Positions 14,661 through 64,000 of a stretch of DNA of 64,000 nt are shown piece by piece. Position numbers and translations under genes: made by a program. The notes beneath the pieces were generated by a model. The model made no database searches. It was not told the origin of the DNA and was given only the letters and a program-made list of their open reading frames with translations. How positions within the stretch are numbered: position 1 is the stretch's first letter; each line of letters opens with the position of its first letter. Source of the DNA: Psammoneis japonica (Eukaryota); assembly GCA_008632985.1 (NCBI GenBank), contig QPGO01000129.1, forward strand, positions 62,001 to 126,000. Direction: 5' to 3'.

Positions 14661-14854
14661 GACATCAAATGTAAATTCAAGCCTGCCAAAAGTGGGCAAC
14701 TTTGCAATTTCACTTTGTTCACAATGCAACTGTCGTCCATGCAAGCAATGCATTGTCAATCAGCCCTTTACACAAACCTGCTTTGCACCCATGTCAACTT
14801 GCTGCTTCACCAGTTTTGCATTCCAACACATGCTTGTTCACACGCTTGCTGTGT

Positions 14855-17466: not shown

Positions 17467-17554
17467 CCAATTAACACCAGCAGATTGTTGGTGATTGGCA
17501 TGGAAGTTGGTGGTGATTTAAATGGAAGTGACAAAGATGCACGCGACAGCATTC

Positions 17555-17949
17555 GACGCGTTCCAGCCCTGGGTGGGAGCTCGTAGCACTGACGTGTGAC
17601 ACAAATAATTTTTGTCATCCGTCGTATGTTTTGCACGTACATTTCTACGTGTAATATTTAAAAAAATTGTCCAGACTCGCTGTTTTGCGAAGCCCCAGAC
17701 GTTTTACATAACGAATTTATAGAAACAGTAATGCGCCAGTTACATTCTTCAATGTCTGAAGAATGTAACTGGCTAAGTAAAAAACGATGTACTTCAATCA
17801 TGTGCGAGTTTGTGCGTTCGCAAAATTGCCTCATTTTCTGTCGGCGAACATTGACATTCTAATTACTGTATAATTTTACTACGGAGCTCGCACGTAGAAT
17901 TCTACGGGCCCAATGTCACACGGATTCCCACCTACGTCTGGAACGCGTC
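17555..17949. mobile_element. 395-bp MITE, copy 1
   Basis: Imperfect TIRs gacgcgttccagccctgggtggga / tcccacctacgtctggaacgcgtc. 4-bp TSD ATTC at 17551-17554 and 17950-17953. Retains TpA. Confidence 0.85.
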
Positions 17950-20900
17950 ATTCAAACTCAACGTCTGGTGGATCTTGGATGTGACGTTTGCACAATTGAC
18001 AAGAGGATGCGCTGTGCTTCCTCGCCGAAGCACATGGAGTGTGATGTTCTAAGTTTGCACAGATCAGCGGAACGGAAGAGATCATCCAAAGAGACAAAGT
18101 TCGATCACATTTGCTTTGACTGCGTGTGTTCAAACCCGGCCCATCTCTCGGCTTCAGCTCCAAAGGGACCTTTTTTCCAAGATGCACTCAGGGAGCTGCT
18201 GCGGTCGCTGACGGACAATGGGGTGTTCTTCCTGCCTGCGCACAATCTTGCGTTTTCCGAGTTTTGGATCGAATGGAAGAAACAACACATGTCAGAAGAG
18301 CACCCAATGCGTTTCTTGCATGAAGAGCAAGCACACGACGAGGTTCCCATCCTTCGAGACGAGGCACAAGTGGACATCTCTGCCTGCGGAAAGTTTTGTA
18401 CAAGGGAAGAATGCACCAAGGATTGTGAGTTAAAACACGAAGAAGTGAAACGCCTCACAGCAACAGATGAAGCTACATTGGCGCATTTTCCAGATTTCCG
18501 GGGTCCAGTCAAATGCATCGGATTAACTGGAAGAAGAAAGGACCCATGCTGTGTGCCAGTTTTCACCGGTGGCAACTGTGTGTGTTGTCCAACATGCAGT
18601 CTTAAGAGACACGAGCGTTTTCGGCGATGCCCACATTGGAATGCGGCGCAGTTTGATCTTGACTGCAAAGACGCACCTGACTCAGCATGTGGGACAAAAA
18701 ACAGCAAGAAAACCAGCGAAGAAACTCTCCTCCAGCAAATCAAACAGTGCAACGCCGATCTTCTCAGCTGTTGGAGGCAGAAGGACCAACCACATGGGGT
18801 TGGTGGCAAGAACTGGGATTTGTCCTCAATGCATCCCAAAAGCATTGGCGAAAATGCGAGCATGAAACAACCTTGCCGGAAGTCCAACAAGCTGTCTGAC
18901 ACATTCGACAACAACATTCTGTTCATTGAAAAACCAGGCAGGGCGGGAACGAGGTGTTCCCTCGTCATCCACTTCAAGCTGCGTGTGACAGCACATGGTG
19001 TGATGGGTCCGAATGCTTCAAAGCAAATGTGTCGGCACCTGCAAAGCGAGGTGGAGATTTTACATTCGGATGCCAACCACCCGCACAGGGCAAGCGATCC
19101 AACTCGTCCATTCGTTTTGAACCCAGACACAATGGAGGGAATCACCAACGGTGACGTCTTCAGGTCGTGCAAGTTTGACAAAAGAATTCTTGGATTGGGT
19201 TTGTCAATGCAGCTCAGGAACATTGTTGAACAGGGGCTGAGCAGTGGGTTGGCAAGAGAGTTTTTACTTGCAGCAAAGTTTGACCATTCATTTCAAGGGA
19301 CTTTGGTGTGAATGGAGTGATTGCTCAAGGTTGGAGCCGCCATGGAGGGTCAGGTGTTGCAAGGCCTGGAACGACAGAAAAGGAAAAGGACCTCTCTCCA
19401 AGATGCAGACAGTGGATTTTGCAACTGACCGTGATTTTGGTTCACATCATGTGCCAAAAAGCTTTGCAGGGAACACCAAGGTCTTCCCAAGGAGTGATGT
19501 CGGAGGAAAGACAAAGGTTGTCTGAGAAATGCCAAGTCTGGTTGGGTTGCCCAGAACGATTGCGAGATGTGTCAAAGCTCAATGAGGCAGGATCTCACAT
19601 TGCCGGTTTTGCTTTCACACACTTCGATGGGAAAAATGAGTGGGAATTCCTCTTGGATGACATTGGCAACGGTGTTGTCTTCATTGATGATTGGTGGGAT
19701 TACAACATTTGCGAAGATTTGGTGGACAAGCTGAAAAGGCACTCGGTCCCCATCACCAACACCACGTTTGGCCATCTGTCGTACAACAGAGAGATTGTCG
19801 GACTTCAGCTGCAAAAGCTGCTGTTCAAGACGGATTGTGAACATGCAAATGCCCCATTCGAACAACTGGAATCCCCGACAGATGGCTTCAACCTTTCGAC
19901 CATGGCGAACAAAGATGACATTCAGCATGCAACCCAGCATGTCAGGGATCACCTGCAGCGATTTGACAGTGGCAACCACAAAGGCATGTTGGGATTGCTT
20001 GTTGACAAAGGCAAAGACAGAGACCTCCTCCTGGGATTGATCGCCCACAGTTGGTTCAATTTCACATTCCACCATGAGGGGTGCATTGCTTTTCACCACG
20101 GAGACGAATTCGCGGCATTTGTGGGCATGGAATTCAATGGTGCACCTCTTGTTGCTCTTGTGGCTTTGAAAGAATCTGTGAAACCCGAAAACCAAGAATC
20201 AATGAAAACCTTGTTGCAGAAAAATGAGATGGGATTGTTGTGCCACCGATTGGTGTCCATGACGAAGCAATTGAAGAACAACGGCGACATGAACGGAATT
20301 GTGTGTTCGACGTTACAGAGATTTCAACGCATGGATCCTTCCTTGACCAAAATTAAGGAGATGCGAATCCACTGTGTGTTCATTTCCAGTCAATTTGATG
20401 TTCTGCAGGCAAAGACACCAATGGAAGTCACGAATCTGCCAGGGAACTTTTGTTTTGTCGCGAAGCCAGGAAGAACAAACTGCCAGAGCATTGGCTGCCT
20501 GGCACAAGGTTGGCTGATGTGCGTGGGGCTCTGACGATCCAATCGGCTTCCGTCATGGGACAAATCCCCCCTCAAAATGCAGCAGTGGAGCACAAATCCA
20601 AGGGTGATTCTGGATTTTGTCTGTTTGTTAACATGTGTGTTGTCGGGAAAGAAGCACACGAGAGAGGTGAACGGATCTCCTCGTTGAGGGCAAGGGAAGT
20701 TGTTCAAGATGCAATTGAAGTTGCAAGAAAAAATGGTGGGAGACCAACTTGGGCCAAATGTGACCAACTGGGCTGCAGGGAATGTCGATCGATGAACAAC
20801 AAGTTGCGCAAGGATCCACACCACCTCGTGTCAAGCGATCAGGGTGTGTCACCCATTCGCTCTGTGGAACATTCGACCAAGTCGACAAGCGGTTTGTGGC

Positions 20901-21102
20901 CTGACGAATCGGAGCACAGGGTTGAGCATTTCATTTGTGATCAATGGTGTGATTTGTCAACTCATGTCGATGTTTGCTCTTTTGTCAAGTCAAAGCATGA
21001 CTTGACAAAGCAGAAGGGTTTGTTACAATTCCGAGAATCAAAACTGAGCGGGACCAACCAGTGCTTTTAGACATGTCAGCATGCCATTGGTCTTCAATGT
21101 AC

Positions 21103-21499
21103 GACGGGTTCCAGTCCTAGGTGGGACTCCGTGTTACATTGGGCCCGTAGAATTCTACGTGCGAGCTCCGTAGTAAAATTATACTGCAATGAAAACATGC
21201 ATGATCGCCAACAGAAAAAGAGGCAATTTTACGAACGTATCTCCTCCTTCATGCTTGGAGTACATCATTGACAGTTTGCCCGGGTATATTCTTCAGACAT
21301 TAAAGAACATACCCAGCGTATTTTCATTCTCATAAATGTTGAAAATAGAAAGCCTTTGGCTTCGCAAAACAGGGAGTATGAAACAATTTCGTAGAATGTC
21401 ACACGTAGAAATGTACGTGCGCGACATGCGACGCGATCCAAAAAACTGTTGATGTCACAGTTCAGCAGTACGAGGTCCCACCTAGAGCTGGAACGCGTC
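21103..21499. mobile_element. 397-bp MITE, copy 2, same family in opposite orientation
   Basis: TIRs gacgggttccagtcctaggtggga / tcccacctagagctggaacgcgtc. 4-bp TSD GTAC at 21099-21102 and 21500-21503. Shares tataattttactacggagctcgcacgtagaattctacgggccc (inverted) with copy 1. Confidence 0.85.
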
Positions 21500-21531
21500 G
21501 TACTCACTGATAGAAGCAGCAACATTACACT

Positions 21532-24500
21532 TCAACTTACTTGCTGATAGAAGGAGCAACAATGAGTGGTGCCAACAGATGCTGTCAGACAGGTTGACAC
21601 ACCTTTTACAGTGAACTCATTGCGAACGTGTTTCCTTTTTCCCAAGGTGCGTTGTCGTTTCTCCTTGTCTCGCTTCCTGCGTTTATCCAGGTGGAGCTGG
21701 ATCACTTTGTTGGACAGGAAATGATTCGGCCAGTCATTGTGTCTGTCTGCAACAAACAACATTGAGCTCGAGCATCCCAGCGCTTCAACATTGTCTTCAT
21801 TGCAGTTGTCAGGAACAAGGACAGAGAAACCACCCACTGCTGTTGCGTCTCTGCTGGCACGCCAAAATTTTGGGATCATCTGAGACTCTCTGCCATGACC
21901 AACAGTTGTTGTTTCAAGTTCCCAGTGCTCGACCACACCGCTGGAAGACTTGCCACGCAACGTCTTCATCTGTTCCTTGCACGGCTGTCCTGCGGCAAGC
22001 GGCGTTGTTCCGTCATCAGCTGGCACGAAACCACGGAGCACAAACGGGCACTTTTTTTCTGACCAGTTCCCTCTTCATGTGAGACCCTGGGTGTGTCGTG
22101 CCACAACCCATTGTTGTTGCAACTGGGGTGTCCACGCATTAAAATCCCTTTCTCTGGTGTGGCAAACCCCGAGCAAACAACTGCTTCATCGCACTTGACG
22201 CAAAGTTCCTCCGTTGGCGACAACAAAAACTCAAGCAGGGCAGAGACCAATTCTGCAGTTTCCGGGAGGACACGGATCTTGTTGCTGCCTGAACACTGAC
22301 AGCAAGTTCGTGCAGTTCTGTTCACAACAAACAAGGGGTGCATCAATTTTTCTTCAGAGGAATTTACGCTCGCCTGTCCAACCGTGGAAGGGATGAGAAG
22401 ACTGTGTGCCTTCTCAAGAACTGCCATGTCATGCAAATGCACAACAAGTTGGTCCAAGAAATTGTCTGCACCCAGTGCAACCTGGCAAGTTTTTGCCGGA
22501 AGCTTGGCCCAGAACTTCAGGTGACTCTCTCCAGTCATGGCAGAGAAATTTGCAATCTGGCCACAAAGGAACGAGTCGATGATGAGATGCAGCATAGAAT
22601 GGAACTTGGTGGTCCAGAACAAATGAGTGTTCCTTGCACGACAAAGGCATGCTTTTATCTTGAACATGAGCAGGACGACTCGGCACTTGAAATCCACCTC
22701 ACCTGTTTTTCCATGAAGTCCCTTTCCATGCAGACAAAACAAATGGAAAAGCAGCATGTGATGCAACAAGTCCAACAATTCATCGACTCCACAATCGACG
22801 GATTTTTTGGCTGTCGTTTCGTCATCTACCATCTTCACAAAAGCTTGAGGAAGTTGGTTTTCCATTTCTGCATGGATGACAGTGCTTGGCAATTTTGACT
22901 TGGTGAGCAGACAGTGCCGTCTGTCTGCACACCTTGCAAAGTTGTCCCGATCATCTGCCGATTCAACGACAAGACCATGTGGTCCGGGTGTCAACAATTG
23001 TTCAGGTGAAGTCTCAACAGCCCGTTGTTTCCATCTCAACGATTTTGTTTCGTCCTGTGCAATCTTCTGGCACAACAAAAAGTGATCGTTGTCCAGTTGC
23101 TTGGAAAATGGTTCCCAAAATTCAGAAAGTCCGTGACGATGCATCTGTTGCATCACAGAGTTTCGGTGATGAAGATTGGATGGGTCGCAGGCGACATCAG
23201 ACCATGTCTCTTTAGGAAGTGCAACAGCCGCATTCTCATCAACCTGGCTTGTGTTGGTTGTGCCGGTTTGTTCATTGGATGGTTCAACGGGCTCAGCATC
23301 CTCATCATCGGGTTCACTTTCTGAGGATTTGGTCAATTGTTCATCTTGTTGCTTCTTTCCTTTAAAGCCATCAGCCGTCTTTTTCTTTTTGCTGTCAAAG
23401 GATGGATCGCACCTTTTTCCAGCAGTTTTCTACCAGCGTGTGTGTGACCAATGATTGCAAGTGCGAGAAGCTTTCCCATCTTCTCGTCACACGCAAGTTG
23501 ACTGAGTGTGGAAAGTCCCCCGTTAACTCGAATTCGCGGGCAGTCACGTCTCTGACCTGGATGACAATGGGATGTGCAGAATGGCTCAGATGCAATGCGG
23601 TCGTGTTCCTTTTTCCATTTGGCAGACATCTCTCCAATGATTGCCTCCATCATTTGAGGGACAATGCCCGCCTCCAACACATGCATTGTGTCAGCAACAG
23701 TCATGCCAAATGCACCACATGGGTTGTCGCCCATGTCAAGTGGAAAGTGAGCATTGTCCACTGCATGCTGTCCAAACACTTTTCTCAAAATTTTGGAGCA
23801 CACGGTCATTCGGCGAATGAGGGATGAAGCCAGCTCAGTCTCAGCCTTTTTTTTTGATGTCATTGTACGATGTTTCCGGGAAACACTTTTGACATGCTGG
23901 TGCCAACAGCTGTTGTCATCCTCTGGATCCGGGCCCAATGCAGCCACAGTGAGCAACTCCATGAAAGCTTGGTTAAAAAATTGGCAGACATGAAGGGGGT
24001 CATCAGAACGGTGGGAGGGCACATGGCAGTTGTGAGACAACCTCTCGGTCTTGCTTCGGCCCATGACTCTTCCACAAATGCGTTCTTGATTGAGGATGTC
24101 CCCCAACAGGGAGTTGCAATGCATCGCCACTCTGACACGGCAGTGTTGAGTGCCTGTCATTGCACGAACAATGGGTGGATTCGCCTGGCAATGAAGCAGA
24201 CCACGGAGGACCTCCGTGAGAATGCGGTGACAGTTGGCAACAACAAGGTGCCCAAGCTTGTCTTTCTTGTCTTTCCTGTCCAAATTGGGCATGAATCCGA
24301 GTGGACGCCAACAACGGCAGTCACGGCGTGCATCCTCTTGAATCATGGCAAGTGAGCACATTGCAGGCTCCATCCCGTGAGGATTGACCGCATTGACTCC
24401 TGTCTTGTCCAAGCAGTTGACAAGGTGAACGTGAAAATCAGATGCCGTTTCCTTTGCATTGGTGCAACGTTGTTGCCACTTGCCGTCACCCATGTCTTGA

Positions 24501-25948
24501 CTTTGAGTGGACAATCGCCAGTCCCCAGGATGATCCGGGAACGACATCTCAAAACCGTCAGCCGGGCCAGCACTGGGTTCCAAATCGCCGTCGGTGGGGG
24601 GTGGCACACAAGGTGACCAGACATCATTTGGGTTGACCTGCAACTTGGAAAGATCACGGAACACTGGCTTGGTGAAGAGATCCTGCAAGGTCTCGGTGAA
24701 ACTGCAAACCGGGAAAGGTGGGGAGCGACGACATTTGGGTCCGTCCTTCTGTTGCTGTGTTGGATTGTTACATTCTAGCATCACAGTGGCAGTGCGGGGG
24801 AGAGGAACATTGGGAAACAACCCTGGGAGTTGCTTCATCGCCACGGCGGCAGTGATGGGTGGCTTGGACAAATCCAGTCTTTTTTCTGCATGCTCTTCAT
24901 GCAAAATTCTCACCACTTTGTCGACAAAGTCAATTGCAACACCTGGCCGACGACACAAATGCGGCAAATGCACCATGGGTGCAATGCTGGGTGAGCAGAC
25001 TGGAGGTGCATCGAAATCCTCATCGGGTGCGGCATCACGCGGCGGGCCAAGAGGGTTGTGTTGATCAAGGGAGGAAACAGGATCTTCTGTCGGATGGGAA
25101 ATTGAGGGGGGGCCACAACTGCCATCGCGACGGTCGGCTCCAATGAACTCGGGAACATCCACAGGACTGTCCTCTCCAAGGGCGGACACACCATCATCTG
25201 CAAACAAAACAAATCGGCGGACATTTTGGGAGGCTGCACTGGCGGCAGCAAAGTTGGCAGCTGAGTGCAATCGACCAGAGCGTCTGATGGAGGGTGGGCA
25301 CAGTCCACTTCTGGCAGAGGGAGGACAAGCTAGAGAAGAATTGTCCATTGGTGTGGGAGGAGATGGAGCTGGATTCCAGAGGACTTCGGGGAGGGGAGGA
25401 GGGGGTTCGTTGTCGGAGAAACCAAACCCTGCAGGATCATCATGGTCGTCCAGTGATTCATCATGGTCGTCGTCTGGAGGGGGAAGTGCACGGGCGGCAG
25501 CAGAAGATGTGGCATGCAGGCGAAGGGACATTTCCTCTTTTTCACGGCAGGGCAAGTGCTTCTGTAGATGAAGGGCGATGTTGGAAAAGGGAACACGGCA
25601 ATGGGGACATTTGGGTTTGTTGGTGTTGGATCCAAGGGAGCCGACGGAGGCAGAATCCAGAGGATGAGAGGAAAGAGATGTTCCGCCGGATGAAGAAGAC
25701 AATTGGGTTGTGCGGCGCAACTGTGTCAATGGGGGATGGAGACCAGATGCTGCGGTGCAGTGCCGAGATGGGTGATGCTGCACGTTGTTTTCAGAGTCAA
25801 ATCCACGTTGTCCACAATGAGGACAACTAAAAGACTTGGTGGAAACTGTGGAACGGAGGCAGTTAGTTGCGATGTGCCTGCTGAGGCCACGTTCGGAAAA
25901 GAAACCGGTTCGTTTGCACCATGGACAAACAAGACCATCAGACGACAT
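21532..25948 (-). pseudogene. Plavaka-family transposase with three N-terminal C2H2-like Zn fingers, frameshifted
   Basis: ORFs 23333..25948, 21966..23336 and 21532..22041 give CLDKTG...MEP...WRPLGFMPNL, GDILNQERICGR, DTMHVLEAGI, KFHSMLH...G..AN...GESHLK..AKLP...Q and RGHPSC..NGLWHD. The N-terminus has three CPxC...H fingers. Confidence 0.8.
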
Positions 25949-26391
25949 GGCCGAAGCACACAGACGAAGGAGTTGAGAAGAGAATCAAAAGCAAACAGTG
26001 GGTGCAGCAACAATCACTTGGGGACACATTGAGGGCAGAAACACAGAGACACAACGTGCGGATGGACGGGGAGGAAGGATGGAATGGGCAGGGAGAGAAA
26101 ATTGAGAAAACAATTGGAGTCTAGGTTGATGGACGCAGGCGGCAATTTTGATCCAGAAAGTTGATCAACACACAATCCAGAAATTAAAATGGAGTTAAAT
26201 GTGCACACAAGGCTTGTCGGATGGGGGGGGCAAACAGCCAAATTGAGGAACACAGATGTGTGTTGTTGAACATTTCAGAAAAGCTGACTTGTCAAATCAG
26301 CACGATCTTGGACCAAAGGGAGAAAATGTCGGGTTTTATTTCAAGAAATCTTGACGGCTAGTGCGACACCTGGATCATTGGTGTCCCAGAT

Positions 26392-26479
26392 GAACTTGAG
26401 CCGCCCGCATGATGTGGCATCAACTTGAGCCGACTGCATGACATGGTGTCAACTTGAGCCACCCCTCATGACATGGTGT
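26392..26479 (+). repeat. Subterminal 29-bp tandem repeat (3 copies), with two related units at 11705-11762
   Basis: cttgagcc at 26395, 26424 and 26453; cttgagc at 11705 and 11735. Confidence 0.8.
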
Positions 26480-27069
26480 TTTCCTGTAGAAGCATGTGCA
26501 AACATCAAAGGAAAACAGGAGGTTGAGAGCACAAAAAATGCATTGAATCAACAGAATCTGTCAAACGATGTGGAGCAATTCAACAACTGAGAATGTGAGA
26601 ATGAAACAACAGCAAAATGACAGAAGCAGTTTTCATTCATTTTTGGACTTCATCTCACTTCTCTTTTTACAGATGCACTTGTTGGAGCAAAATGAATCAT
26701 GCCATGCATTGGCATTGTTGGCGGAAAACTGTTTGGTGGCAAAATCTATTTGGCAACAGTTGTTGACACCATCATGGTGTTTTTGGTGGCGGTTGGTGGC
26801 GGCACACCGGCAGGTGTTCGACATGGAAGGGAAGTCTGACCTGACGTCATGATGTTGCATGACATTTCACCATGGCGTGCATGCCAGAATCTGACATTGT
26901 GGTGGTGACATCAGCAGCCACAGTGGGAACAGTGTGAAACACACTGCATGCACTGCTGCACTTGACCTTGTGGCCATGACATCATCGCACATGTTGACAC
27001 GGGGAGAAGCAATCGACAAGTGCAAAGGTTTCATTGCAGTTGAGAAGCCATGAAAACTCTTTTATAAAA

Positions 27070-30000
27070 TGAGGGCATGCTCATTGAAATGTCCAGACAG
27101 GAACACAACAAAATGTCTTGTGTGATGTGGCCAAGTGGAGGGACATCAACAAAAGGGAGGTGTGGGGGGAAAGTCACTTGAGATGGTGCCCTTGAGAGAA
27201 CAATTCCCTTGCAATGGCAAAAACACCCTTGAGCTGTGGAAAGCAAAGTGAAGCCCATTTCCTGTGCAATGCCTGCAGAAAGCAGGAGCACCCCAAAGCA
27301 GCTTGCAAATGGCAAGAAGCACAACAACAAAACACTTCCCAGCAGGTGACTTTGTGCTCCTTCTTTGGCTGTGCAGTGCAGTGGCATGTCTCCAACAAAC
27401 ATGAACAGCAGTCAAATGGGCCAAACTGGGGCTTTGTCATGAAGTGTTGGGTGTGGCACTGCATGGCATGAAAAGCCAAAACTCCAAGAGCTCCTCTGCC
27501 TCCCTTGTTCTTTTCTCTTTGAGCTCTGGCAAAGAATCTTGGCAGAATGCAAAGACAAGCAGGAAGCTGGAGCAAGGGCCAACATTTCTGACTCAGCAGA
27601 CTTTGCTTGCATGGCAAAAGGTCAGGTGCTCACAAGTTGTCTGGGGCTCAGACAGGTTTTTGGTGCAGTGGCAGGAGGAGAAGGAGGAGCTTGCTGCTCT
27701 CTGGGAGCCAGTTTGAACCTCATGGTGGTGTGTCAGCTGCCAGCAGAGTGATCACCTGAGCTGCTCACTTGCAAATGAAGCTGAAAGCCATGACAAAGCA
27801 AAGCAATGAGCCACGTTGGCAGAGTGGCTTCAATTGTTTGTTTGACCCTTGAATGGAGTCTGGGTTTCCAGCAGAAACCAAGTCAAGAGATTGCAGCTTC
27901 AAGCTGCATCAACAGGCTCTTCACTCATTTCTTGTGTGCTCTGGTGTGGGTGCTTGTTGCAGCTGTGCTTGCCTTGACTTTGTCAATGACTGGAGAGCAC
28001 AAAAGCAACAAGAAGGGTGAGCCCAACCAGCAATGATGTGGCAGCCCCCCTTCTCCTTTTTTGCTCTCTTCACAATCTGCACACTGTTGTTTTTGGCTTC
28101 TGTTGCTTGTGCTCCTTGCCTCACATGATGAACAAATCTGTCTTCCATCTGTCTTCATGTCCCCAGTCCATGGCTTTGGCAACTCACCCTCTCAGTGTGC
28201 ATTGGCAGCTGCGCCATCCAGGGCCTTGACCACCATTCTTTCCAAAGTGCTGGCAAAAGCTCTGGATTGCAGCAAAGCACACCTGCAGCTCTTCCAGTTT
28301 CCATCAGGAGCCACAAAGCCCCTGTGCCTGTGTCGGAAGCTGTGCTGGCTCATGTTCTGAGTCAGGATCTTGGAACACTTCCTTCAGTGTGGTCATTTGT
28401 GGCTGCTCTTGTCTTGGTCATTAGAGCTGTTTGGAGCCAAGCTGTGCCCAGCAACACACCCAGGAAGAGTGAAAAAAAAACAATGTGCTCTTCATGAAGC
28501 AGGTGGTGTGGGTGGGCAGGTGTGTGTGTGTGTGTGGGNGGGGGGGGGGGGGGGGGGGGCAAAGAGAGGCAAAGAAAGACAAAGTCTTTTTGCTGGTTTG
28601 TTGGGCCCACTCCTCTGGCACCACTCCTCTCCTCCTGCTTGTCCAATCTTTGTCAATGGCACCTGCAATTCCCCAGGCCCCTGGTGGTGAGTTCTTGATG
28701 ACTGCGCTGCTGTCAAAATCTTTGGTGGGTGTGCTCCTTCCAAAGCTGCTGTGGTTGCTCCCTCTGATGCACCAGCGCTGGCCACTCCAAATCATCGTTG
28801 CAAGCCCTTGGTGGCACACGTCATGCTTTGGAAGCTGGTGCTGTTTGAAAGCCAGTGTGGGCATGTCCTTGGTGCATTTCTTCTGCATGTCAGGAGGGCC
28901 CTGCAGTGTTGGAGGCTGCACTCCAGCTCAGAAGTTTTTTGCATCAGTGCCACAACAAGTGTTGGAGAGGTTTTGTGCTCATGATGACCTCTCCACTCAG
29001 TTTCACAACCTCAGCTTGGTTGCTTGCAGCAGGGCTTCTTTGGGTTCTTGTTGTGCTCCAAAATTGCACTCCTCATGATGGCAACAAAGAACTTTTTCCA
29101 AACCCTCATTTTCACAGCCAAGATGTTTTTTGTCTTCCAGACATGGCTCCTTTGCCTCCAGCATCCCCAGATCCTTCAAGTTGTTGCCTCAAATCTTGTC
29201 CCTGCCTGCACCTCAACATGATGACCCCATCCCCCCCTTCAAAACAAAGATCAGCTGCTGCAACAAGATGCACCAGTTCAACCCAGCCCCCCTCAAGAGG
29301 TGGACAATCTCTTCCTCTAACCTCCCCTTGGTGACAACAAGTGCTGAAATGTGCTGCCAGCCTTGACTGTGCCATGTGCAGCTTTGTCTTCATTCCAAGA
29401 ATGGCGGTGTGCTTGATTGACCTGCAAGGCTGGTGTGCATGAAGTGCTGAACTCTGCATTGTTTTTCATCTTGGTTTGCTGTGAGTGAGCTTCTTTTGTT
29501 TGTCCAGGCTTGTTTTGCTCTTTGCCATCATTTGTTGGTGTTTGTTTGGATTTCAAAATGTTGTTTGCAGTGCTCTTGTTGCTTGCTGCTGTGTTTGTGG
29601 GGCTGCAGTCATTTGTCAGTTCTTGTGCTGTGTTTGCACTTTTGTTGTTGCTTTTCTTTCATTTTGCTGTGCACTGCAGTGTCTTGAAGGCCCCAATTGT
29701 TTGTCCTTTTTCTTGCCATTTGCTGCCATTGCAAGTGCCCACATTTTGCCATCTGCTGCTCTTGTTTGCTGCTCACCTTTGAGTCTTTCTCTGCTTGGTT
29801 GACTGGCTCTGAAGGAGTGAGGCCAAGGGAGTGCTTGCACTTGCATGTTTGCATGCATGTGCAGCATGTGCTCCTTCCTTGCTCTTTTGCTGCTTGCACT
29901 CACAGGGCCACTGCTTGTCATTTCAAGACCCAAGTTGGAGCCCCCACTGCTGCCACAAGTTTGTCCTCAATGCCCGCCACCATGCTGCTCCAGTGTGCAC

Positions 30001-31105
30001 CCACATTTCCACTCAAGTCACCAGCTCACTCTGCTTGCTGACTCAGCAAGCCCAGATCATTCACACTCTCTCAAAAAATGCCCCCCTTCCCAGACATTGA
30101 TGTGAGCTCTAGCTTTGGTGGGAATTTGCCGGAGGGGGCTGTGTGACATTTCATGTTTTTGAAGCCTCAGCGCAAATTTCAAATGCATTTCTTCTGTGTG
30201 CCTTTTGATTGAGTTTGTGCTGGCTTGTGGCCAGTCATGGCACAATCTGCCCAACAACTTGCAGTGGTTTTTGTTCAGCCACACATCTCTGACATCTGTG
30301 GGGTGTGACTGCAAGCAGGAGTTTGCCAAAATTTTGAGCATGAAGAGGTGCAATGATGGCACCACCAAAGTGGCCATGTGTTTTGATGTCAAAGATGGAT
30401 GCATTTTGTTGCCCAGCTCACAAGCTGCAGAGCTTGCATGCAGACATTTTCCCAAGTCTTCATGGAACACACATCACAAAATTTCTCTGTGGAAACAACA
30501 CTGGCTGCACATCCTCAGAGCTCACGACTCATCACACCGCAGAGAATTTTGTGCAAGCAGACCACTCTCCTGCAAAATGCACACAGAAATGTTTTCTGTT
30601 GACCTTCAAACAGCAGCGGAACATGTGTGTTTTCTCTTCAAGTGTGGGTCTGGAGCCCCCCCCCCCCAACAACCCCCCCAACAAAGGTGCCTCTTCCTTT
30701 TTCCTTTGCGGGGTTGAACAGGCCCCTCACCTTTTGTTGCAGCAGCACACTGGACGAGCTTCGAGAAATGAAAAGAAGGGTGGGAACCACTTCTGCTTGT
30801 GGGTGCCAGTTGTGGCAAAAGACATTTGCCACAGCTCTCCAGCACAGCAGTGTTGCCCAGGGTGCAGAGACCCCGTTTGTGCTGGAAACCCCGCACGTGT
30901 CAGCGACTCTTTTTGTTTGCTTTCACCAACTCTCTCGCAACTCAAAACAAAAACACAACTCCACTGCAGCACCCTGTCCATTTTTTGATCAACTGGAGAA
31001 TAAAGCCAAAGATTTGCTGAGTCCTCACTCCATGTCTCCAGAGTTGGTCGCCTGTTTTCACTCGAGGAACGGTGTGCACAGACACATTTTGCACTCGCCG
31101 CATGA
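27070..31105. other. Heavily degenerate relic, probably transposon-derived, depleted in both TpA and CpG; identity not recognisable
   Basis: Almost no TA and very few CG over ~4 kb. Dense spurious Cys/His/Gln-rich ORFs in all frames. No motif recognised. Confidence 0.5.
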
Positions 31106-41043: not shown

Positions 41044-41331
41044 GTTGATGGGATGCTGTTTGGTACGACTGCTTTCATTTTATTATTTATGGGGTTGTTG
41101 CGGTGGCAACGGTTTCGGAGTTCTGATACGTTATGGTGCATCCGAACCTGAAGTGTCACCCACCGCACAGCCACGACCGAAGGCGGGACTAAACTTTCGC
41201 ACGTATCTTTTGCGCGCAGGCTGGGATCAAAGATATCCTTCAAGATCCGAGATTCCAGTTTTGTTTGATGTTGAACCATGACATTCTAGTGTGGCAATGG
41301 GAGAACACGTCATCGATCCACTGCGGGGATC

Positions 41332-44300
41332 TGTCACGACGAAAGTTGTGAAAACCGATTCTCAAGAATCAGGGTGCCGATTCTCAAGAATCTGATTTCC
41401 GTTGAACGCAAAATTCGAGCTCGACGTGCGTGCTCAACGGATGATTCACAAGTTCCGCCGTCCTGTTTTCTTAAGAATCGAAGTTCGATTCTTGAGAATG
41501 GCTGTTGCTGATTTTTGTGAAAACTCCTGACACATCACTCATTTGCCAGTTTAAAAATTTAACGTCACGTTTGTTCAATCATCAAAGAATGCATGTGAAC
41601 ACAAAGCGATTTTCGTGCCGACTTCGAAGCTGTGAACGACAATGGCGGCTTCGACGCAAGAAGCAACACCATTCAAGACATTGCGACAAACACTTCAACC
41701 TTGTTCGACAGCACTTAGTTTGTGACACTTGTGAGAGTCTTGCTTTGCTTTGAAAGCCGCTTTGGAGTCGAAAAAACCGTCAAAACACTCGTGCGCCGAT
41801 GTTGTTGTTGTGCTCTTTTGACCGAAAAGCAATGAAGAAGTCAATTCTTCTCAGATTTTTTGATTCATTGACATGCAAGCCATTGAGATGCAATGCATGG
41901 TTGATTGTTGGGACTGTTGATTGACTTGTCATCGACAATGATCGCCATTTTGACTTTGGATTCATGTGGCAGATTTTTCACAAGAATTCCCTTTTCACAA
42001 GATTCCAATTCGTGGCACGAGCTCCGATTCTCAAGAATCGATTTTCACAAGATTCAGTCTCCGATTCTCAAGAATCGTCGATTCTCAAGAATCGTCGTAA
42101 CATCTGTCACGACGAAAGTTGTGAAAACCGATTCTCAAGAATCCGGGTGCCGATTCTTAAGAATCTGATTTTTGTTGAATGCAAAATTCGAGCTCGACGT
42201 GCGTGCTCAACGGACGATTCACAAGTTCCGCCGTCCTGTTTTCTTAAGAATCGAAGTTCGATTCTTGAGAACAGCTGTTGCTGATTCTTGTGAAAACTCC
42301 CAGTGCATCACTCATTTGCCAATTTAAAAATTTAATGTCATGTTTGTTTGATCATTGAAGAACGCATGTGAGTGCAAAGCAATTTACGCACGGACTTCGA
42401 AGCTGTGAACGACAATGGCGGCTTCGACGCAAGAAGCGACACCATTCAAGACATTGCGACAAACACTTCAACCTCATTCGACAGTGCTCAGTTTGTGACA
42501 CTTGTGAGAGTCTTGCTTTCTTAGAAAGCCGCTCTGGAGTCGAAAAAACCGTCAAAACACTCATGCGCCGCTGTTGTTGTTGTGCTCTTTCGACCGAAAA
42601 AGCAATGAAGAAGTCAATTCTTCTCAGATTTTTTGATTCATTAACATGCAAGCCATTGAGATACAATGTGTGGTTGATTGTTGGGACTGTTGATTGACTT
42701 CTCGTCGACAATGATCGCCATTTTGACTTTGGATTCATGTGGCAGATTTTTCACAAGAATTCCCTTTTCACAAGATTCCAATTGGTGGCACGAGCTCCGA
42801 TTCTCAAGAATCGATTTTCACAAGATTCGGTCTCCGATTCTCAAGAATCGTCGATTCTCAAGAATCGTCGTAACATCTGTCACGACGAAAGTTGTGAAAA
42901 CCGATTCTCAAGAATCCGGGTGCCAATTCTTAAGAATCTGATTTCCGTTGAACGCAAAATTCGAGCTCGACGTGCGTGCTCAATGGACGATTCACAAGTT
43001 CCGCCGTCCTGTTTTCTTGAGAATCGAAGTTCGATTCTTGAGAATGGCTGTTGCTGATTCTTATGAAAACTCCCAATGCATCACTCATTTGCCAATTTAA
43101 AAATTTAACGTCATGTTTGTTCAATCATTGAAGAGTGCATGTGAACACAAAGCGATTTTCGCACGACTTCGAAGCTGTGAACGACAATGGCAGCTTCGAC
43201 GCAAGAAGCGACACCATTCAAGACATTGCAACAAATGCTTCAACCTCATTTGATGGTGCTCAGTTCACAACACTTGTGAGAGTCTTGCTTTGCTTTGAAA
43301 GCCGCTCTGGAGTCGAAAAAACCATCAAAACACTCGTGCGCCGATGTTGTTGTCATGCTCTTTCGACCGAAAAAGCAATGAAGAAGTCAATTCTTCTCAG
43401 ATTTTTCGATTCATTAACATGCAAGCCATTGAGATGCAACACATGGTTGATTGTTGGGACTGTTGATTGACTTGTCGTCAACAATGATCGCCATTTTGAC
43501 TTTGGATTCATGTGGCAGATTTTTCACAAGAATTCCCTTTTCACAAGATTCCAATTCGTGGCACGAGCTCCGATTCTCAAGAATCGATTTTCACAAGATT
43601 CAGTCTCCGATTCTCAAGAATCGTCGATTCTCAAGAATCGTCGTAACATCTGTCACGACGAAAGTTGTGAAAACCGATTCTCAAGAATCCGGGTGCCGAT
43701 TCTTGAGAATCTGATTTCCGTTGAACGCAAAATTCGAGCTCGACGTGCGTGCTCAACGGACGATTCACAAGTTCCGTCGTCCTGTTTTCTTAAGAATCGA
43801 AGTTCGATTCTTGAGAATGGCTGTTGCTGATTCTTGTGAAAACTCCCAATGTGTCACTCATTTGCCAATTTAAAAATTTGACGTCACGTTTGTTTAATCA
43901 TTGAAGAATGCATGTGAACATAAAGCGATTTTCGCACCGACTTCGAAGCTGTGAACGACAATGGCGGCTTCAATGCAAGAAGCGACACCATTCAAGACAT
44001 TGCGACAAGTGCTTCAACCTCATTCGACAGCACTTAGTTTGTGACACTTGTGAGAGTCTTGCTTTGCTTTGAAAGCCGCTCTGGAGTCGAAAAAACTGTC
44101 AAAACACTCGTGCGCCGATGTTGTTGTTGTGCTCTTTTGACCGAAAAAGCAATGAAGAAGTCAACTCTTCTCAGATTTTTTGATTCATTAACATGCAAGC
44201 TGTTGAGGTGCAATGTGTGGTTGATTGTTGGGACTGTTGATTGACTTCTCGTCGACAATGATCGCCATTTTGACTTTGGATTCATGTGGCAGATTTTTCA

Positions 44301-44422
44301 CAAGAATTCCCTTTTCACAAGATTCCAATTCGTGGCACGAGCTCCGATTCTCAAGAATCGATTTTCACAAGATTCGGTCTCCGATTCTCAAGAATCGTTG
44401 ATTCTCAAGAATCGTCGCAACA
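41332..44422. mobile_element. Head-to-tail tetramer of a ~771-bp non-coding TIR element (TGT...ACA ends; Ginger/IS3-integrase-like termini)
   Basis: Period 773 (atctgtcacgacga at 41329, 42102, 42875 and 43648). Unit ends are tgtcacgacga / tcgtcg(t/c)aaca, internal junctions are ACA-TC-TGT, and GATC flanks both outer ends (41328-41331 and 44423-44426). Confidence 0.8.
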
Positions 44423-44426
44423 GATC

Positions 44427-45306
44427 CAACACCCTGATGTGCTGCAGTGCATGTGTGGTGACAATGACGATTGATGTGGCCGCAAGACTTGTGAATGTCG
44501 TGGTCACGACACTGTTGGCATCGTCTTCGACGACGTTGGAAGTTTGCATGTCTCCCGGCTGCATTGCCGATGGCACTTCCGAAACACTGAGTTGACTGCA
44601 AGCTCTAGCGCTGCCCTCGGTTTGTGTCAAGCCCGGTGGTTGTACTTCAGCATGCGGAAAAGGACCCGCAGTTCAGCAAGATGGAAAGATCTTACACAAA
44701 TGTGCCAAGGACGATGCAATTTGGCCAAATGTGTTGGACGAAGAGGATTCATTGAAGTTGACACCTTCGGAACTCTCCACAGGTTACAACAAAGCTTGCA
44801 TTGCAAAGGAAGCACTCACAAGAAAAGACTACAAAGAAGCACTGTCCTCATGTGAAGAAAGCATGAAACTCGCCATGGACATTGCGTTGTCTCGAAGCAA
44901 TGGCGAAGGCGACGAAGGAGGTGAGCTTCCAGGCAGTCTGCACTGGATCTTTGACGCGCATGCTGGCTGGGCGAGATCGTTGTTGGAACTTGGAGAGAAA
45001 GAGAATGCTCGCAAAATTTGCCAAACATCATGTGATGTTTCAAAAGGTCTTCATGCGGAATCATCAGAGCCAATGGCACAAATTTGTCAAGCCCCAAATG
45101 ACAGCAAAGGGGAGCTTGAGGCCCTGAAGCTGTTCTTGGCACTACCGTCTCCAGATCCAGTACCTTTGGCAATGTCAAACAAAAGACGATCTCTTGGCTT
45201 TCGGGTGGCAAAGCTCGAGCGTGAACAGCAATGGACTTTGTTGACAGCCTCGAAGTTCTGTGAGACAGAAGGCATTTTCACCCACGCGAGAGGAGCTCGC
45301 CTTTAA
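44427..45306 (+). pseudogene. Thioredoxin-like [2Fe-2S] ferredoxin domain plus TPR-like helical protein, disrupted; 5' end probably at 41297-41331
   Basis: One frame reads LEVCMSPGCIADG...ETLS*LQALA...KPGGCTSACGKGP and continues into ORF 44731..45306. Single premature TGA at 44593-44595. Confidence 0.7.
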
Positions 45307-60417: not shown

Positions 60418-62983
60418 CATTGGTGTTTCACGAAGAAGTGCCACGCCCAGAGACATGCAGGGGCGTTTTAGAAATGTCTTTGAACGCTTGACAAGGCTAC
60501 AATGCAAAAAAGCGAATGACGCACGCACCAGTGACGAGAATTGGCGAAAATTGACATGCAGATCGTTGTTTTTGTTCCAGTGAAATCGAGAAACGTTGTT
60601 TGTTTGCACCAAACACCTCTTTCCCCCAGTGTTGCCCGCTGTCCAACAATCGCCTTTTGTGTCTCGAATGATGTCGTGCACTTGGCATTGTTGAAAATGA
60701 TTGGCCACAAGCAGCGTTTGGGCAACCTGCCGAGCACGGATTTTGGACTCAGCGGGACACCATCATCCTGAAGAACATTGTTGATCAAGATCCTGGCCTT
60801 TGTCTGAATGAATTGGTGATCCAAATGAACCAGGTCACTCACAAGAAACAGATCCCAGCCCAGATGCGTGAGAAACTCAGAAAGGAAGTGGGACGCTCCC
60901 TTCAAATTGTGACAAACAAGGCCATGGAAATGGATGAGAAAGAAAGGGAATCACATCTCCAAGCATTGAAGGCTGCAGCTCATTGACCTCAAATGCTTTT
61001 GCACTTGGATGAGTCACACAAAGATCAAAATTCATCAAGACGATGGCGCTGGTGGTCTTGATGAGGTGCAGCTGCTGTTCGATCAATGTCCTTTGAGATC
61101 AACAAATGGGCTCGGCATTCATTGCTCGTGGCTTGCGACAATGACGGATTCGCAAAGGAGGCCTGTGGCACTGTTCCTCGGGGCAATGTGCAAAAGATGA
61201 AGAGAGCAACCCATTTGCAGGAGCAGCTTGAGATCAGGAGTGATTTGAACTTTGGTTCAAAGAGAAACCAGCTCCTTGCATTGGCAACTTTGAAGAGGGA
61301 GAGCCAAGGTCCATTGTTGTGCTTGACAATGTGTCAACTAACCACTCACAGTGCATCACGGACGTCAGTGAAGAAACGAAAGCCATTCTCATCTTTGCTG
61401 CCCCATGCTGCCCTCCTGACTTGAATCCCATTGAAATGATGTTTGGCCACTGTGGGTTGAGCGCCACCTTGACGCTCTTGACAGCATCACTCCCACAACA
61501 GCTCACCCACATTGTCGTCCATTGTCAGGTCCCCGGTTGCGATCATCACCCTTCAGTGGCTTCTCTTAAGAAGGAAACTGAGTTGCAGTGACTGGCGCCT
61601 GTTCTCAGAGCACAAGAGGAGCACAAGAGGTGGTGGAGGCAAGTGCTTGTCATGGCGGCAAGCAAGAGGCACCGTCTCTGCCTTAGATTGGCGGCGCAAC
61701 AGATTGGAATGGAGTTTGTTGCTCTTGCTGCAACGTTCAATGGATGGAATGCAGTTTGGTGCACATGGCCAGAGTGTGCTTCCTTGCCAAACTCATCACA
61801 TTCCCTTTCCGTCAGACTGCCAAGACCAACTCCAGTGGCCTCCTCAAAGTCTGCCCATGATTCAATTTTGAGTGTTTTTAGAACTCCCCAATTCAACTGG
61901 TGAATTCTGGCTGCACACTGGCTTGATTTTTCATTGTGTTCCTGGATGACGGGCCCAAGGACATTGACAATCAGTTTGGAAAATCACAATCTTTGATGTT
62001 CTCCTTGGTCTTGGAAGCCTGAATGTGATTCTCATTGGTCTTGCCAGTGCAATGTTTCCTTCCTTTGTCCTTCTTTTGCTCAGCCAGGTGGACAACATGT
62101 GCTGACCTTCGAGTGGTTTTGGTTCATTTCTTGGCAGGCGATGTGATTTTGAGTGCATGTCGGAAGGAAGCTTTGTTGGTCAAAGCCTGCAATGTGTCTC
62201 CCTTTTCCACCAGAGGAGTGGGGTGGAGCTCATCCTGCAGATGGGAAGCAGAGTGCATGTAGAAAGTGCATCCTGAATTGTCGATCGCCCTCTCGAATTT
62301 CATGCTCAACCCCTCCCGGTTCTCCAAGGCTTTGTCCATGGCATCTTCAACATCTTGGAAACCTGGGCTGCAGTCAAGATCTCCATTGCTGATGTTGTTC
62401 AGCAAGAAGTTGTCATTGAACAAAGCTTCCTTCTTTCCAGCGACTGGAGAGTCGAAGAATCACAGGCGCCAACTCGAAATCAAATGCGGAGTCATCTGAC
62501 ATCAGCTGGGTTGTCTTCCTCTTCATGATCTGAGATGAGCTGCTCTCTGATGCATCACTTGGAGACAAAGGCATGTGTTGAAAAGCCTTCCTTCTCTTTG
62601 TGCTTCGCCTTTTAGCCTCAATGGTTGAGACACAGAGATCAACTGACAATCTAAGAAAAAATCCGTGCTCGGCATCTTTACGGACATCAGTTGCACACCA
62701 CAATGTTCAGCAAAACCAAGAGCACAGTGTCACACAACACGCAAAAGGTGAATGTTAGACAGCAGGTGATGTGGGGGTGAACCACGCAGCAGCACAAACA
62801 AACAATTCTCATCGATTTCAAGAGGAACAACAACAGATTTTCGAGTCGGTTTTCAACGGATCTCTTTCTTGGAACGCACCAGCATCAATTTTTTGCACTG
62901 CAGATTGATGGAGCATGCAAAGACATTTCTAAAACGCCCCTGCATGTCTCTGGGTGTGGCTTGGTTGATGAGAAATGACACTG
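60418..62983 (+). mobile_element. Decayed IS630/Tc1/mariner DNA transposon, ~2.6 kb
   Basis: 43-bp inverted repeat at 60440-60482 and 62918-62960 (42/43). Putative ends TA|CATTG and CACTG. Transposase relic inside. Confidence 0.75.
60950..61600 (+). pseudogene. IS630/Tc1 DDE transposase relic; coordinates approximate
   Basis: CLDNVSTNHS...APCCPPDLNPIEMMFG matches the xDN...PPYSPDLNPIE signature. Confidence 0.75.
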
Positions 62984-63689
62984 AGAGGCAGCAAGAGTGG
63001 TGTGACGAGTGTTGTGATCAAAATTTTTTTTCTTTTTGCGCATGTCTGTGTGTGTGCAACTTGGTGTCACAATGGACACACATCATTTGTGCACTTCAAT
63101 CAGTCCATTTCTTGATGCCTTTGCATGCCGTCTTTGTCATCCCATGCCTTTTGATGCACGGGCCATGCCAGTCTGTCTGGAGATTCACAATCTCATCACA
63201 TTGGTGCTTCCTGTTCTTTCTGTTGTTCTTTGTGTCCAGAATCATTTGGCACACATCCAAAACATTGTGATGCATGCAAGGGGGTTGCTGGTCAACTGGT
63301 TTGTGTTTCCTTTGAGCTTTTGTGCCAACTCATCATGCGCAACTTTGAAGCTCAGGTTTTGAGCTTTTGACAGCATCTCATTGATGTCCACATCCAACGA
63401 TTGTTCGCTGACATTGTGCAATGCTTCTGTGGCAATCATCATGTCCTTCAAGCAGTTTTCTGACCACCGCTGCACAGTCACATGTCATGCTGTGTCCCCA
63501 ACTCATTGCTGAGCCAAGTCACATCATCCATCTCATTGATGGCCAATGGCTCCTTTTCTTTTGATGAACAGATGGTTTGTGGTGCAAGTGTCACATTCCG
63601 TCATGTCAGAGGTGCTGCCAGCCTCACATTGCCAAGGGATCTTTCACCCACACCACACATCAGAATTCCCTTTTTGACATCACAAACAG

Positions 63690-64000
63690 GATGCACTCCT
63701 GTTGTTCTTGATTCTCAACTGCCTGTGATGGCTTGCTTCAACTTTCAGAACTTCTTGCCCTGCAACGGCTTTGTCGTGAAGTCTCCAAGCATGTCATCTG
63801 TTGGACAACACTGTGCTCTTGGGTTGCCCTTCTTCGCTTGATCAGCAATGAAGAAATGCCAAATGTTGAGCACCCCAGACTGTTTCCCAGCACTCTTGTG
63901 CCCATTGGTTTCCAGCAGTGTGGCACTTTTGTTGTCCTGACATGGGACATTCTTGTCAATCAGACAACCCTGGTGTTCCACAAACAACTTGCTCCACAGG
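63690..64000 (-). mobile_element. Ty1/copia retrotransposon relic (RNase H C-terminus); continues beyond the window
   Basis: QDNKSATLLETNG..SAGK...LNIWHFFIAD...CPTDDMLGDFTTKPLQGKKF, followed by a PPT-like acaggagtg at ~63693-63701 on the minus strand. Confidence 0.85.

Follow-up and report, generated by a model that had tools for sequence, protein, structure and literature searches.

In ascomycete fungi, the process called repeat-induced point mutation (RIP) converts C:G to T:A pairs, mostly by changing CpA to TpA, and leaves behind AT-rich DNA that has gained TpA. To our knowledge, RIP was until 2026 the only well-known system that directs point mutations to repeats, and its product is TpA. 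So far, destruction of TpA has been described for a single rhizarian alga, the chlorarachniophyte Bigelowiella natans, in which integrated viral DNA is subject to TpA-restricted hypermutation (Mettrop et al., bioRxiv 10.64898/2026.01.13.699255, 2026). According to the main text of this preprint, 231 of 302 new mutations in mutation-accumulation lines were located in two integrated viral regions, 230 of these 231 were changes of A to G or T to C, all of them on TpA, and the rate was about 1000 times the baseline, in some lines only. The same text describes 124 clusters in the B. natans genome that are poor in TpA and rich in CpA and TpG, names a single-copy region as a target, and proposes an ADAT2-like adenine deaminase as the agent (10.64898/2026.01.13.699255).

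Here, we have analysed 64,000 nucleotides from the diatom Psammoneis japonica (assembly GCA_008632985.1, contig QPGO01000129.1, positions 62,001 to 126,000 of the forward strand; this whole stretch is called the window, and all positions refer to it). The window harbours a head-to-tail array of four units at 41329-44421 as well as several blocks that are nearly free of the dinucleotide TA. Our work makes it likely that segments of this diatom genome undergo targeted mutation of TpA to CpA or TpG, and that each copy of the array has decayed on its own after the multiplication of the unit. The narrower statement that TpA-specific A:T to G:C transitions have acted on each copy after duplication is well supported: the array demonstrates the direction of the changes, their specificity, and their independence in the individual copies.

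The tandem array and its ancestral state

The array and its right flank are made up of the following parts, given without strand:

41329..42101: tandem unit 1, 773 bp, delimited by repeat spacing and unit lengths; 19 private variable columns
42102..42874: tandem unit 2, 773 bp; 20 private variable columns; contains the surviving palindrome GATTCTTAAGAATC at 42152-42165
42875..43647: tandem unit 3, 773 bp; 21 private variable columns
43648..44421: tandem unit 4, 774 bp; 16 private variable columns
41939..42150 (one instance; present in each unit): motif-rich, near-invariant segment of the unit (columns 611-774 and 1-49 of the alignment)
44422..45143: right flank of the array, also TA-poor, with 5 TA versus 29.6 expected from the window background (Poisson P = 3e-8)

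The spacing between the direct repeats is 773, 773 and 773-774 bp, a period that was not registered by Tandem Repeats Finder with a longest period of 500. The four units align over 774 columns, and the identity between the copies is 93.6-94.5% in a self-BLAST of the array. The left flank (41100-41328) is not depleted of TA (6 versus 9.4 expected), and the word depth of the right flank in the sequencing run considered below is 59, equal to that of the left flank. Two open reading frames (ORFs) bracket the array, one at 40312-41043 (-) and the other from about 44544 (+), and a search of 40000-46000 against Rfam gave no family at gathering score.

A first-pass annotation, made from the sequence alone, had proposed that the four copies record the mutation of TA in progress. 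It was based on one homologous site that reads gttCAatc at 41573, gttTGatc at 42346, gttCAatc at 43119 and gttTAatc at 43892, on the palindrome CGATTCTTAAGAATC at 42151, and on the pairs catTAac/catTGac, gaTAc/gaTGc, ttTAac/ttTGac and tcgTAac/tcgCAac. All these sites are present as quoted, and the four pairs correspond to the alignment sites 542, 562, 232 and 771. The complete alignment consists of 683 invariant columns, 81 columns with transitions, 7 with transversions, and 3 with gaps, so that 81 of the 88 substituted columns are transitions. These affect 35 of the 171 pyrimidine columns that precede a purine and 35 of the 171 purine columns that follow a pyrimidine, and are thus symmetric with respect to the strand; in the remaining contexts, 5 of 219 and 6 of 192 columns are affected. 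As had been anticipated, the variation is therefore concentrated at pyrimidine-purine (YpR) steps (70 of 342 columns, 20.5%, versus 11 of 411 others; Fisher odds ratio 9.4, p = 9.5e-16), and A and T outside these steps vary at 2-3%. The unit contains 171 YpR sites, of which 121 are invariant (47 TG, 46 CA, 27 CG, and a single TA). The 50 variable sites comprise 17 with CA and TG only, 22 with CG and either TG or CA, one with CG, CA and TG, and 10 that include TA. In the present array, TA accounts for 26 of 684 YpR copy-sites. With 76 of the 88 variable columns private to one copy and spread evenly (19, 20, 21 and 16), and with the three possible 2:2 splits of the copies occurring 5, 5 and 2 times, the genealogy of the copies is star-like. 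This agrees with the idea, already present in the first-pass annotation, that each copy decayed independently after multimerisation.

In order to determine which state was ancestral, we have used a likelihood model with four states (CA, TG, CG and TA), single-step transitions only, a star tree, and free root frequencies. The free fit has a log-likelihood (lnL) of -454.06 and assigns 0.75 per branch to the change of TA to each product, 0.071 to that of CG to each product, 0.022 to that of CA or TG to TA, and 0.005 to that to CG, with about 22 TA sites at the root. If the gain rates are fixed at the background of 0.0067 per site and copy, the cost is 0.6 lnL and about 27 TA sites are placed at the root. 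Per direction, the loss of TA to CA or TG exceeds the rate of ordinary transitions about 100-fold, and a model that lacks TA hypermutability costs 50.3 lnL. Allowing for two classes of TA loss, one slow and one saturated, results in a gain of 13.7 lnL. The history with ancestral TA that had been claimed earlier is the best-fitting one: without TA at the root, lnL drops to -472.73, a cost of 18.7, and CA would have to change to TA at 0.148 per branch, i. e. 22 times the background. Among the sites split between CA and TG, those with a 3:1 pattern have a posterior of 0.65-0.87 for a TA root, and those with a 2:2 pattern one of 0.99. At the inferred root of the array, TA makes up 13-16% and CG 28% of the YpR sites, and the corresponding values for the window background are 17% and 23% (1463 TA, 1939 CG, and 5168 CA plus TG in 35.7 kb). 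From the fitted direction and the background-like share of TA at the root, we can conclude that the unit began as ordinary DNA and lost its TA after multiplication.

The same states could also be reached by decay of methylated CpG alone: CG would be the ancestor, deamination of one strand would yield TG or CA, and double hits would yield TA. CpG decay does take place in the array, as CG is involved in 23 of the 50 variable YpR sites, 17 of which have CG in three of the four copies, the loss of CG is about tenfold faster than the background, and a model without CG hypermutability costs 32.8 lnL. Moreover, CpG methylation of diatom transposons has been described (PMC9998398). As the only process, however, it is extremely unlikely. 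The posterior for a CG root is at most 0.002 at the sites split between CA and TG, so the CG ancestor that had been named as the alternative is not found there, and a model without root TA that is given an extra fast class of CG reaches a lnL of -471.35 versus -454.06 for the TA root (Akaike information criterion 958.7 versus 922.1). Across the array, CG is not depleted (observed/expected 1.28 versus 0.10 for TA), and at 27 sites all four copies have retained CG. Finally, CpG decay has no account of the tyrosine codons that read as cysteine or histidine in a transposase-like ORF of the window, nor of the sparing of TTAA (see below). The symmetry of the palindrome, which the first-pass annotation took as a pointer to TA, is of no help in this question, since a CTCGAG centre would make the motif just as palindromic and TA and CG can therefore not be separated in this way. 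A stronger argument for the polarity is that the CpGs beside the motif are intact while the centre of the motif varies.

We have also searched for outgroup copies of the unit. In two metagenome scans, a pattern of two motifs with fixed spacing gave 0 loci, and a pattern with variable gap gave 16 loci that share only the 14-nt motif of the unit (see below), with BLAST matches to the unit of at most 90 nt at about 71%; since nothing else is shared, these loci cannot serve as outgroups. In the metagenomes, unrelated contigs that come in part from microbial mats (L001, L003, L008, L010, L011, L013, L015, L016) carry clusters of the 14-nt motif with about 22-bp spacing and mixed TA, CA and TG centres. 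Another contig (L002) has 14 copies of the motif, 13 of them with a CG centre. Beyond the motif, none of these contigs resembles the diatom unit.

TA-poor blocks, neighbouring bases and a transposase-like ORF

A 500-bp dinucleotide profile along the window revealed that the array is not the only TA-poor segment. Sharply bounded blocks are located at about 11.5-17.5, 18-21, 21.5-31 and 60.5-64 kb, in addition to the array together with 0.7 kb to its right. The parts of these blocks are listed here with their observed/expected ratios:

11505..17500, no strand: TA-free domain A; TA 0.10, CG 0.54, CA 1.66, TG 1.67
18000..21000, no strand: TA-free domain B, flanked by two insertions that resemble miniature inverted-repeat transposable elements (MITEs); TA 0.07, CG 0.65, CA 1.57, TG 1.52
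21550..31000, no strand: TA-free domains C and D; for C, TA 0.08, CG 0.60
27000..31000, no strand: TA-free domain D; TA 0.02, CG 0.10, CA 1.81, TG 1.74
60500..64000, no strand: TA-free domain F, extending beyond the end of the window; TA 0.04, CG 0.40, CA 1.74, TG 1.64
17554..17949, + strand: MITE-like insertion with normal TA (0.69), 77% identical to the inverted copy at 21103-21500
21103..21500, - strand: second, inverted MITE-like insertion with normal TA, from self-comparison and the 500-bp profile
23336..25984, - strand: transposase-like ORF of 883 codons inside a TA-free block, hypermutated and without tyrosine

In the five domains, the observed/expected ratio is 0.02-0.10 for TA and 1.3-1.8 for CA and TG, as compared to 0.55-0.60 and 1.13-1.21, respectively, in the rest of the window. 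Since AC and GT are normal in the blocks and G+C is unchanged at about 47-50%, the composition has been redistributed inside the YpR steps. The ratios of CA and TG are about equal in every domain, as is to be expected for strand symmetry. The loss of CpG is uncoupled from that of TA, as CG is at 1.28 in the array, whereas most blocks are at about 0.6 and the stretch of 27-31 kb is at 0.10. Strong strand skews occur inside the TA-free blocks, at 12001-16000 and 28001-30000 (GC -0.27 and AT -0.25 at 12-14 kb, AT -0.27 at 28-30 kb), and the only N of the window, at 28539, lies inside domain D, the ORFs of which have no Pfam family.

The TA that remains in the blocks is found in particular contexts. 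We have compared the density of each TA tetranucleotide in the large blocks (21,948 bp, 96 TA) to that in ordinary DNA (35,701 bp, 1463 TA), and express it as survival relative to this background:

TTAA: survival 0.71
CTAA/TTAG: survival 0.26
CTAG: survival 0.19
GTAA/TTAC: survival 0.16
ATAA/TTAT: survival 0.07
GTAC: survival 0.07
CTAC/GTAG: survival 0.06
ATAG/CTAT: survival 0.02
ATAT: survival 0.016
ATAC/GTAT: survival 0.013

Thus, ATAT, ATAC and ATAG are depleted 50-75-fold and TTAA is largely spared. In an additive fit, the loss depends on the base 5' of the T in the order A > G > C >> T and on the 3' neighbour in the order TAT > TAC > TAG >> TAA; among the products, TCAN is gained least and GCAN and ACAN most. 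The rule derived from the blocks also holds in the array, where the loss that it predicts correlates with the retention of TA (Spearman -0.67, p = 9.5e-5). The context TTAA is present at 6 of the 11 array sites that keep TA versus 1 of the 17 that are fully decayed (p = 0.007), and 16 of the 26 remaining TA are in TTAA. The first-pass annotation had concluded from the remaining TA that the process is incomplete and thus recent. Recency holds only in part: because most of the remaining TA is in TTAA, the incompleteness reflects in part a resistant context, which the first-pass annotation had missed.

The domains harbour long ORFs (200-880 codons on both strands in 11500-31000 and 60500-64000), most of them without a family match. 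Such ORFs arise largely because the stop codons TAA and TAG are impossible without TA, and most of them should not be taken as genes. Among 48 ORFs from the TA-free domains, Pfam detected only a PhyH match (E 1.3e-5) and a weak zinc finger; other transposable element or viral families and reverse transcriptase were not found in this set. The PhyH match is located in the C-terminal part of the ORF at 14858-15853 (-) and concerns the PhyH 2OG-Fe(II) oxygenase family; the atlas neighbours of this ORF are PhyH clusters at 0.87. With a tyrosine content of 0.3%, it looks edited as well. A match to a DddA-like deaminase in 21969-23429 (-) was taken as noise (E 0.099, 13 bits); it falls into an acidic stretch of low complexity, read as being without a zinc-binding motif.

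The 883-codon ORF provides what the array itself lacks, a comparison with true outgroups. A word-indexed protein search found nothing at 1e-8, and an exhaustive HMMER search identified 698 relatives at E <= 0.001 (best E 4.7e-124, 41% identity). The features of the ORF resemble Plavaka-transposase clusters at 0.95 in the atlas, and the Pfam Plavaka model was matched weakly, below the cut-off, and by one relative only; this family name is a lead only. A scan of viral contigs with two ORFs gave no relatives. We have compared the ORF to 38 relatives with E below 1e-30. None of its 883 residues is a tyrosine (mean of 2.87% in the relatives), and it is enriched in histidine (5.10% versus 3.25%) and cysteine (4.30% versus 2.14%). 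All three conserved tyrosine columns read cysteine, encoded by TGC or TGT, and other conserved residues were retained (tryptophan 4 of 4, histidine 6 of 6, cysteine 6 of 7). Opposite any tyrosine of a relative, the ORF has cysteine in 23.3% and histidine in 9.0% of the cases, as compared to 1.7% and 4.0% in controls in which the relatives were compared among themselves. Thus, TAY codons have become TGY or CAY, and the loss of TA is seen here against true outgroups, which lends the direction proposed in the first-pass annotation support from a second element of the same window.

The process is not a uniform property of the region, as indicated by the two MITE-like islands in otherwise TA-free DNA. 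The copies of about 400 bp each have their own terminal inverted repeat (GACGCGTTCCAG...) and normal TA and CG contents, and differ from each other by 48 transitions and 45 transversions; either they were inserted after the editing or they were not targeted. Ordinary DNA at 7466-7963 contains about 3.4 copies of a 147-bp tandem repeat that are 98% identical and have normal TA, so short or young tandem repeats are not all TA-eroded. The genes of the window encode a THO-complex subunit, a RACK1-type WD40 protein with an identity of 82-88% to proteins from diatoms, among them Chaetoceros, Seminavis and Bacillariaceae, and a protein with a poly(A) polymerase domain.

Competing explanations and points against targeted decay

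Several observations weigh against the idea of targeted and independent decay of TpA, or limit it. First, the 17 sites split between CA and TG show a 3:1 pattern in 14 and a 2:2 pattern in 3 cases, whereas unbiased independent decay predicts a ratio of 8:6 (P = 0.028); some of the 3:1 sites may have arisen when one copy flipped in two steps, or individual sites may favour one of the two outcomes. Second, the neighbour rule from the large domains is no guide to the product, CA or TG, at the sites of the array (lnL -68.4 for a strand-specific rule versus -61.0 for a coin flip). Third, runs of changes on one strand within a copy, which the first-pass annotation had named as the mark of a processive enzyme, are not significant (P = 0.33, 0.68, 0.72 and 0.145, in a small sample and with copies that are not fully independent), so a signal of processivity is absent. 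Fourth, the metagenome scans gave no outgroup copy of the 773-bp unit, and the polarity within the array therefore depends on a star-tree model that treats the sites as independent. Fifth, the motif-rich third of the unit is near-invariant across the copies in all site classes, i. e. CpG, TA-type and ordinary sites. Sixth, the library type of the sequencing run that contains the sequence of the array is not on record.

The 3:1 patterns are just what events in single copies would give. It is conceivable that the ancestor had CA or TG at these sites, that TA was rare, and that single copies flipped from CpA via a short-lived TpA to TpG. The free-fit rate of CA or TG to TA, about three times the background, the posterior of 0.35 for a TG root at the 3:1 sites, and three TA singletons in hot contexts other than TTAA fit to this idea. 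As the sole source of the pattern it is nevertheless unlikely, since it needs the 22-fold elevated change of CA to TA and loses the 18.7 lnL mentioned above, and since it implies a TA-poor ancestor, unlike the background of the window. Because TA hypermutability is still required, such flips are a variant of targeted TpA decay rather than a replacement for it. As a correction to the first-pass annotation, about one third of the 3:1 sites may have originated from a flip in two steps within one copy.

The fifth point is related to a 14-nt near-palindrome, GATTCTYRAGAATC, that occurs 23 times in the window (0.08 expected), each time within the array, with most of its copies in the motif-rich part of each unit. 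In this part, 2 of 13 CG sites and 2 of 131 non-YpR columns are variable, as compared to 21 of 37 (p = 0.012) and 19 of 301 in the centre of the unit. As judged from this conservation at all site classes, the pattern points to constraint or homogenisation, so that selection or gene conversion would also act on the array; the motif-rich third may be a bound regulatory module or a site of homogenising exchange. It is then tempting to ask whether selection against harmful TA, or GC-biased gene conversion that fixes weak-to-strong changes in a recombining array, could explain the entire loss of TA. The change of TA to CA or TG is indeed weak-to-strong, and the motif-rich block seems constrained or homogenised. 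We consider this very improbable, however: the effect is confined to TpA and follows a tetranucleotide rule while other A:T sites hardly change, CpG changes in the very same copies run from strong to weak, the differences lie between paralogous copies and are mostly private, and the same footprint is present in unrelated coding and non-coding DNA.

The sixth point concerns the reality of the sequence. One DNA run (X1) contains 54% of the sampled words of 40800-45000. Contigs built from its 31-mers have a word depth of about 60 and reach up to 315 kb, which suggests accurate reads. They span both junctions of the array with 0 and 1 differences and reproduce the copy-specific variants, and a likeness of at least 99% is reached by 68 of the 118 pieces. 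A technical artefact, with a modified base at TpA that is miscalled in sequencing or polishing so that TA appears at random as CA or TG, would go along with the sharp bounds of the domains, as expected for domains of modification, and with the missing record of the library type. We regard such an artefact as highly implausible, since contigs of depth about 60 reproduce the copy-specific variants and since miscalls would not give an open ORF of 883 codons with coherent replacements by cysteine and histidine. The contigs thus suggest that there is no basecalling artefact, although the run may be the source of the assembly itself and is therefore not an independent proof. Depth bins inside the array range from 1.2 to 950 versus about 60 in the flanks, and there are loose ends with other flanks; this hints at further copies, even though the summed contig depth is not a copy number.

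Targeted decay of TpA thus remains the reading that we prefer, and the following course of events may be envisaged. TpA would be changed to CpA or TpG, that is by an A:T to G:C transition on either strand, in certain segments: the array and about 0.7 kb to its right, the transposase-bearing region, and the other unannotated blocks. The 773-bp unit would have had ordinary TA at the start; a single burst would then have produced at least four copies of it, after which TA sites would have been lost copy by copy. As the copies would have lost TA independently, homologous sites now have CA, TG and TA in different copies. ATA and GTA would be lost first and TTAA would be nearly immune, accounting for most of the residual TA, and these copies would also undergo a second, slower decay of CpG to TpG or CpA, as methylated repeats are expected to do. 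We infer that the agent is a dedicated enzyme, with adenine deamination of DNA in the 5'-TA context as the simplest chemistry, and that the process may serve to disable selfish or foreign DNA.

Relation to known systems

The footprint in P. japonica resembles RIP in that dense, dinucleotide-specific and transition-only mutation appears to affect duplicated or selfish DNA, that the copies are affected independently, and that the mutations spill over into adjacent unique sequence, here the right flank of the array. Unlike in RIP, the chemistry is reversed, as TpA is destroyed and G+C stays near 47-50%. A gain of TpA or an enrichment of AT was not found, with TA at 0.10 in the array and a rate of CA to TA near the background. 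With respect to duplication as a trigger, the inferred ancestor of the array contained TA at a normal level and its copies decayed on their own, but the right flank, with a word depth equal to that of the left flank, is also depleted. Diatoms carry DNMT4 enzymes of unknown function that are related to the RIP factor RID, and transposable elements of Phaeodactylum tricornutum are methylated by DNMT5a (PMC9998398). The decay of methylated CpG is recognizable as a second, partial process that the first-pass annotation had not noted: CG is lost to TG or CA in the array at about ten times the background, the large domains have CG ratios of 0.10-0.65, and CpG is almost lost at 27-31 kb. Unlike the loss of TA, which is separate and much faster, it explains only the sites that bear CG.

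The order TAT > TAC > TAG >> TAA is not the known preference of ADAR enzymes. Hyper-editing by ADAR, the ADAT2/TadA enzymes, and DNA editing by the amphioxus protein BjADAT2 are the related activities reported for adenosine deaminases (via the main text of 10.64898/2026.01.13.699255). The footprint shares with them, as far as they are described there, the outcome of A to G and the preference for a T or U 5' of the edited A. In contrast to adenosine deaminases, both strands are affected equally here (35 versus 35 columns, CA about equal to TG), and the targets include a tandem array and a DNA-transposon-like gene, for which no step through an RNA copy is required. The strand-specific A to G changes of an ADAR-type hyper-editing of RNA were not observed, as the array is symmetric, and no reverse transcriptase was found in the domains.

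Our data have several implications. For annotation, TA-free blocks yield long spurious ORFs on both strands and conceal transposases from word-based and Pfam searches. The array offers a reconstructable ancestor, a ratio of rates of about 100 per direction, and evidence for a separate decay of CpG, and any enzyme proposed as the agent has to account for the sparing of TTAA. That a diatom shows the same signature as B. natans, with near-complete erosion of TA, suggests that the mechanism is widespread among marine protists, where it may shape the landscapes of transposons and viral insertions. It is tempting to speculate, although we can propose this only tentatively and hold it to be rather doubtful at present, that TpA-directed DNA editing is an old genome defence across the lineages of the stramenopile-alveolate-rhizarian (SAR) group (rhizarians, diatoms), run by a DNA adenine deaminase with a gate that makes VTA hot and TTAA immune, and that in diatoms it edits recently duplicated or invading DNA almost completely before coming to a halt. 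If the editing were nearly completed and then halted, MITEs with normal TA could land later in the TA-free blocks, and tandem arrays such as this one would be natural, time-stamped records of single editing episodes.

The closest counterpart is the hypermutation in B. natans. As described in the main text of the preprint, both cases have in common the transitions of TpA to TpG or CpA on either strand at a rate that is orders of magnitude above the background, and the clustered blocks that are poor in TpA, rich in CpA and TpG, and contain transposon-type genes and many unannotated ORFs. In P. japonica, transition columns outnumber transversion columns by 81 to 7, but the 23 CpG-type sites among the 50 variable YpR sites run in the opposite direction; the restriction to TpA is evident from the rates per branch (0.75 versus 0.0067 for the background), and the clustered footprint from the five domains. 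As for selfish targets, one domain contains the transposase-like ORF, with its Pfam link to Plavaka below the cut-off. The two cases differ in the host, a stramenopile here and a rhizarian there, and in the type of evidence, which is comparative in our case rather than derived from mutation-accumulation lines. They also differ in the depth of the depletion (TA 0.02-0.10 versus a block threshold of 0.43 and 0.45 in the viral region of B. natans) and in one of the targets, which is here a tandem array with a reconstructable ancestor. The words TTAA, trinucleotide, tandem, CpG and diatom are absent from the main text of the preprint (10.64898/2026.01.13.699255), and the sparing of TTAA, the accompanying decay of CpG, and the case of a diatom are therefore additions with respect to that text. 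Our literature searches retrieved no report of TpA-poor repeats in diatoms. The footprint in P. japonica is thus the same in kind as that of B. natans, but it is deeper, and it is found in another lineage.

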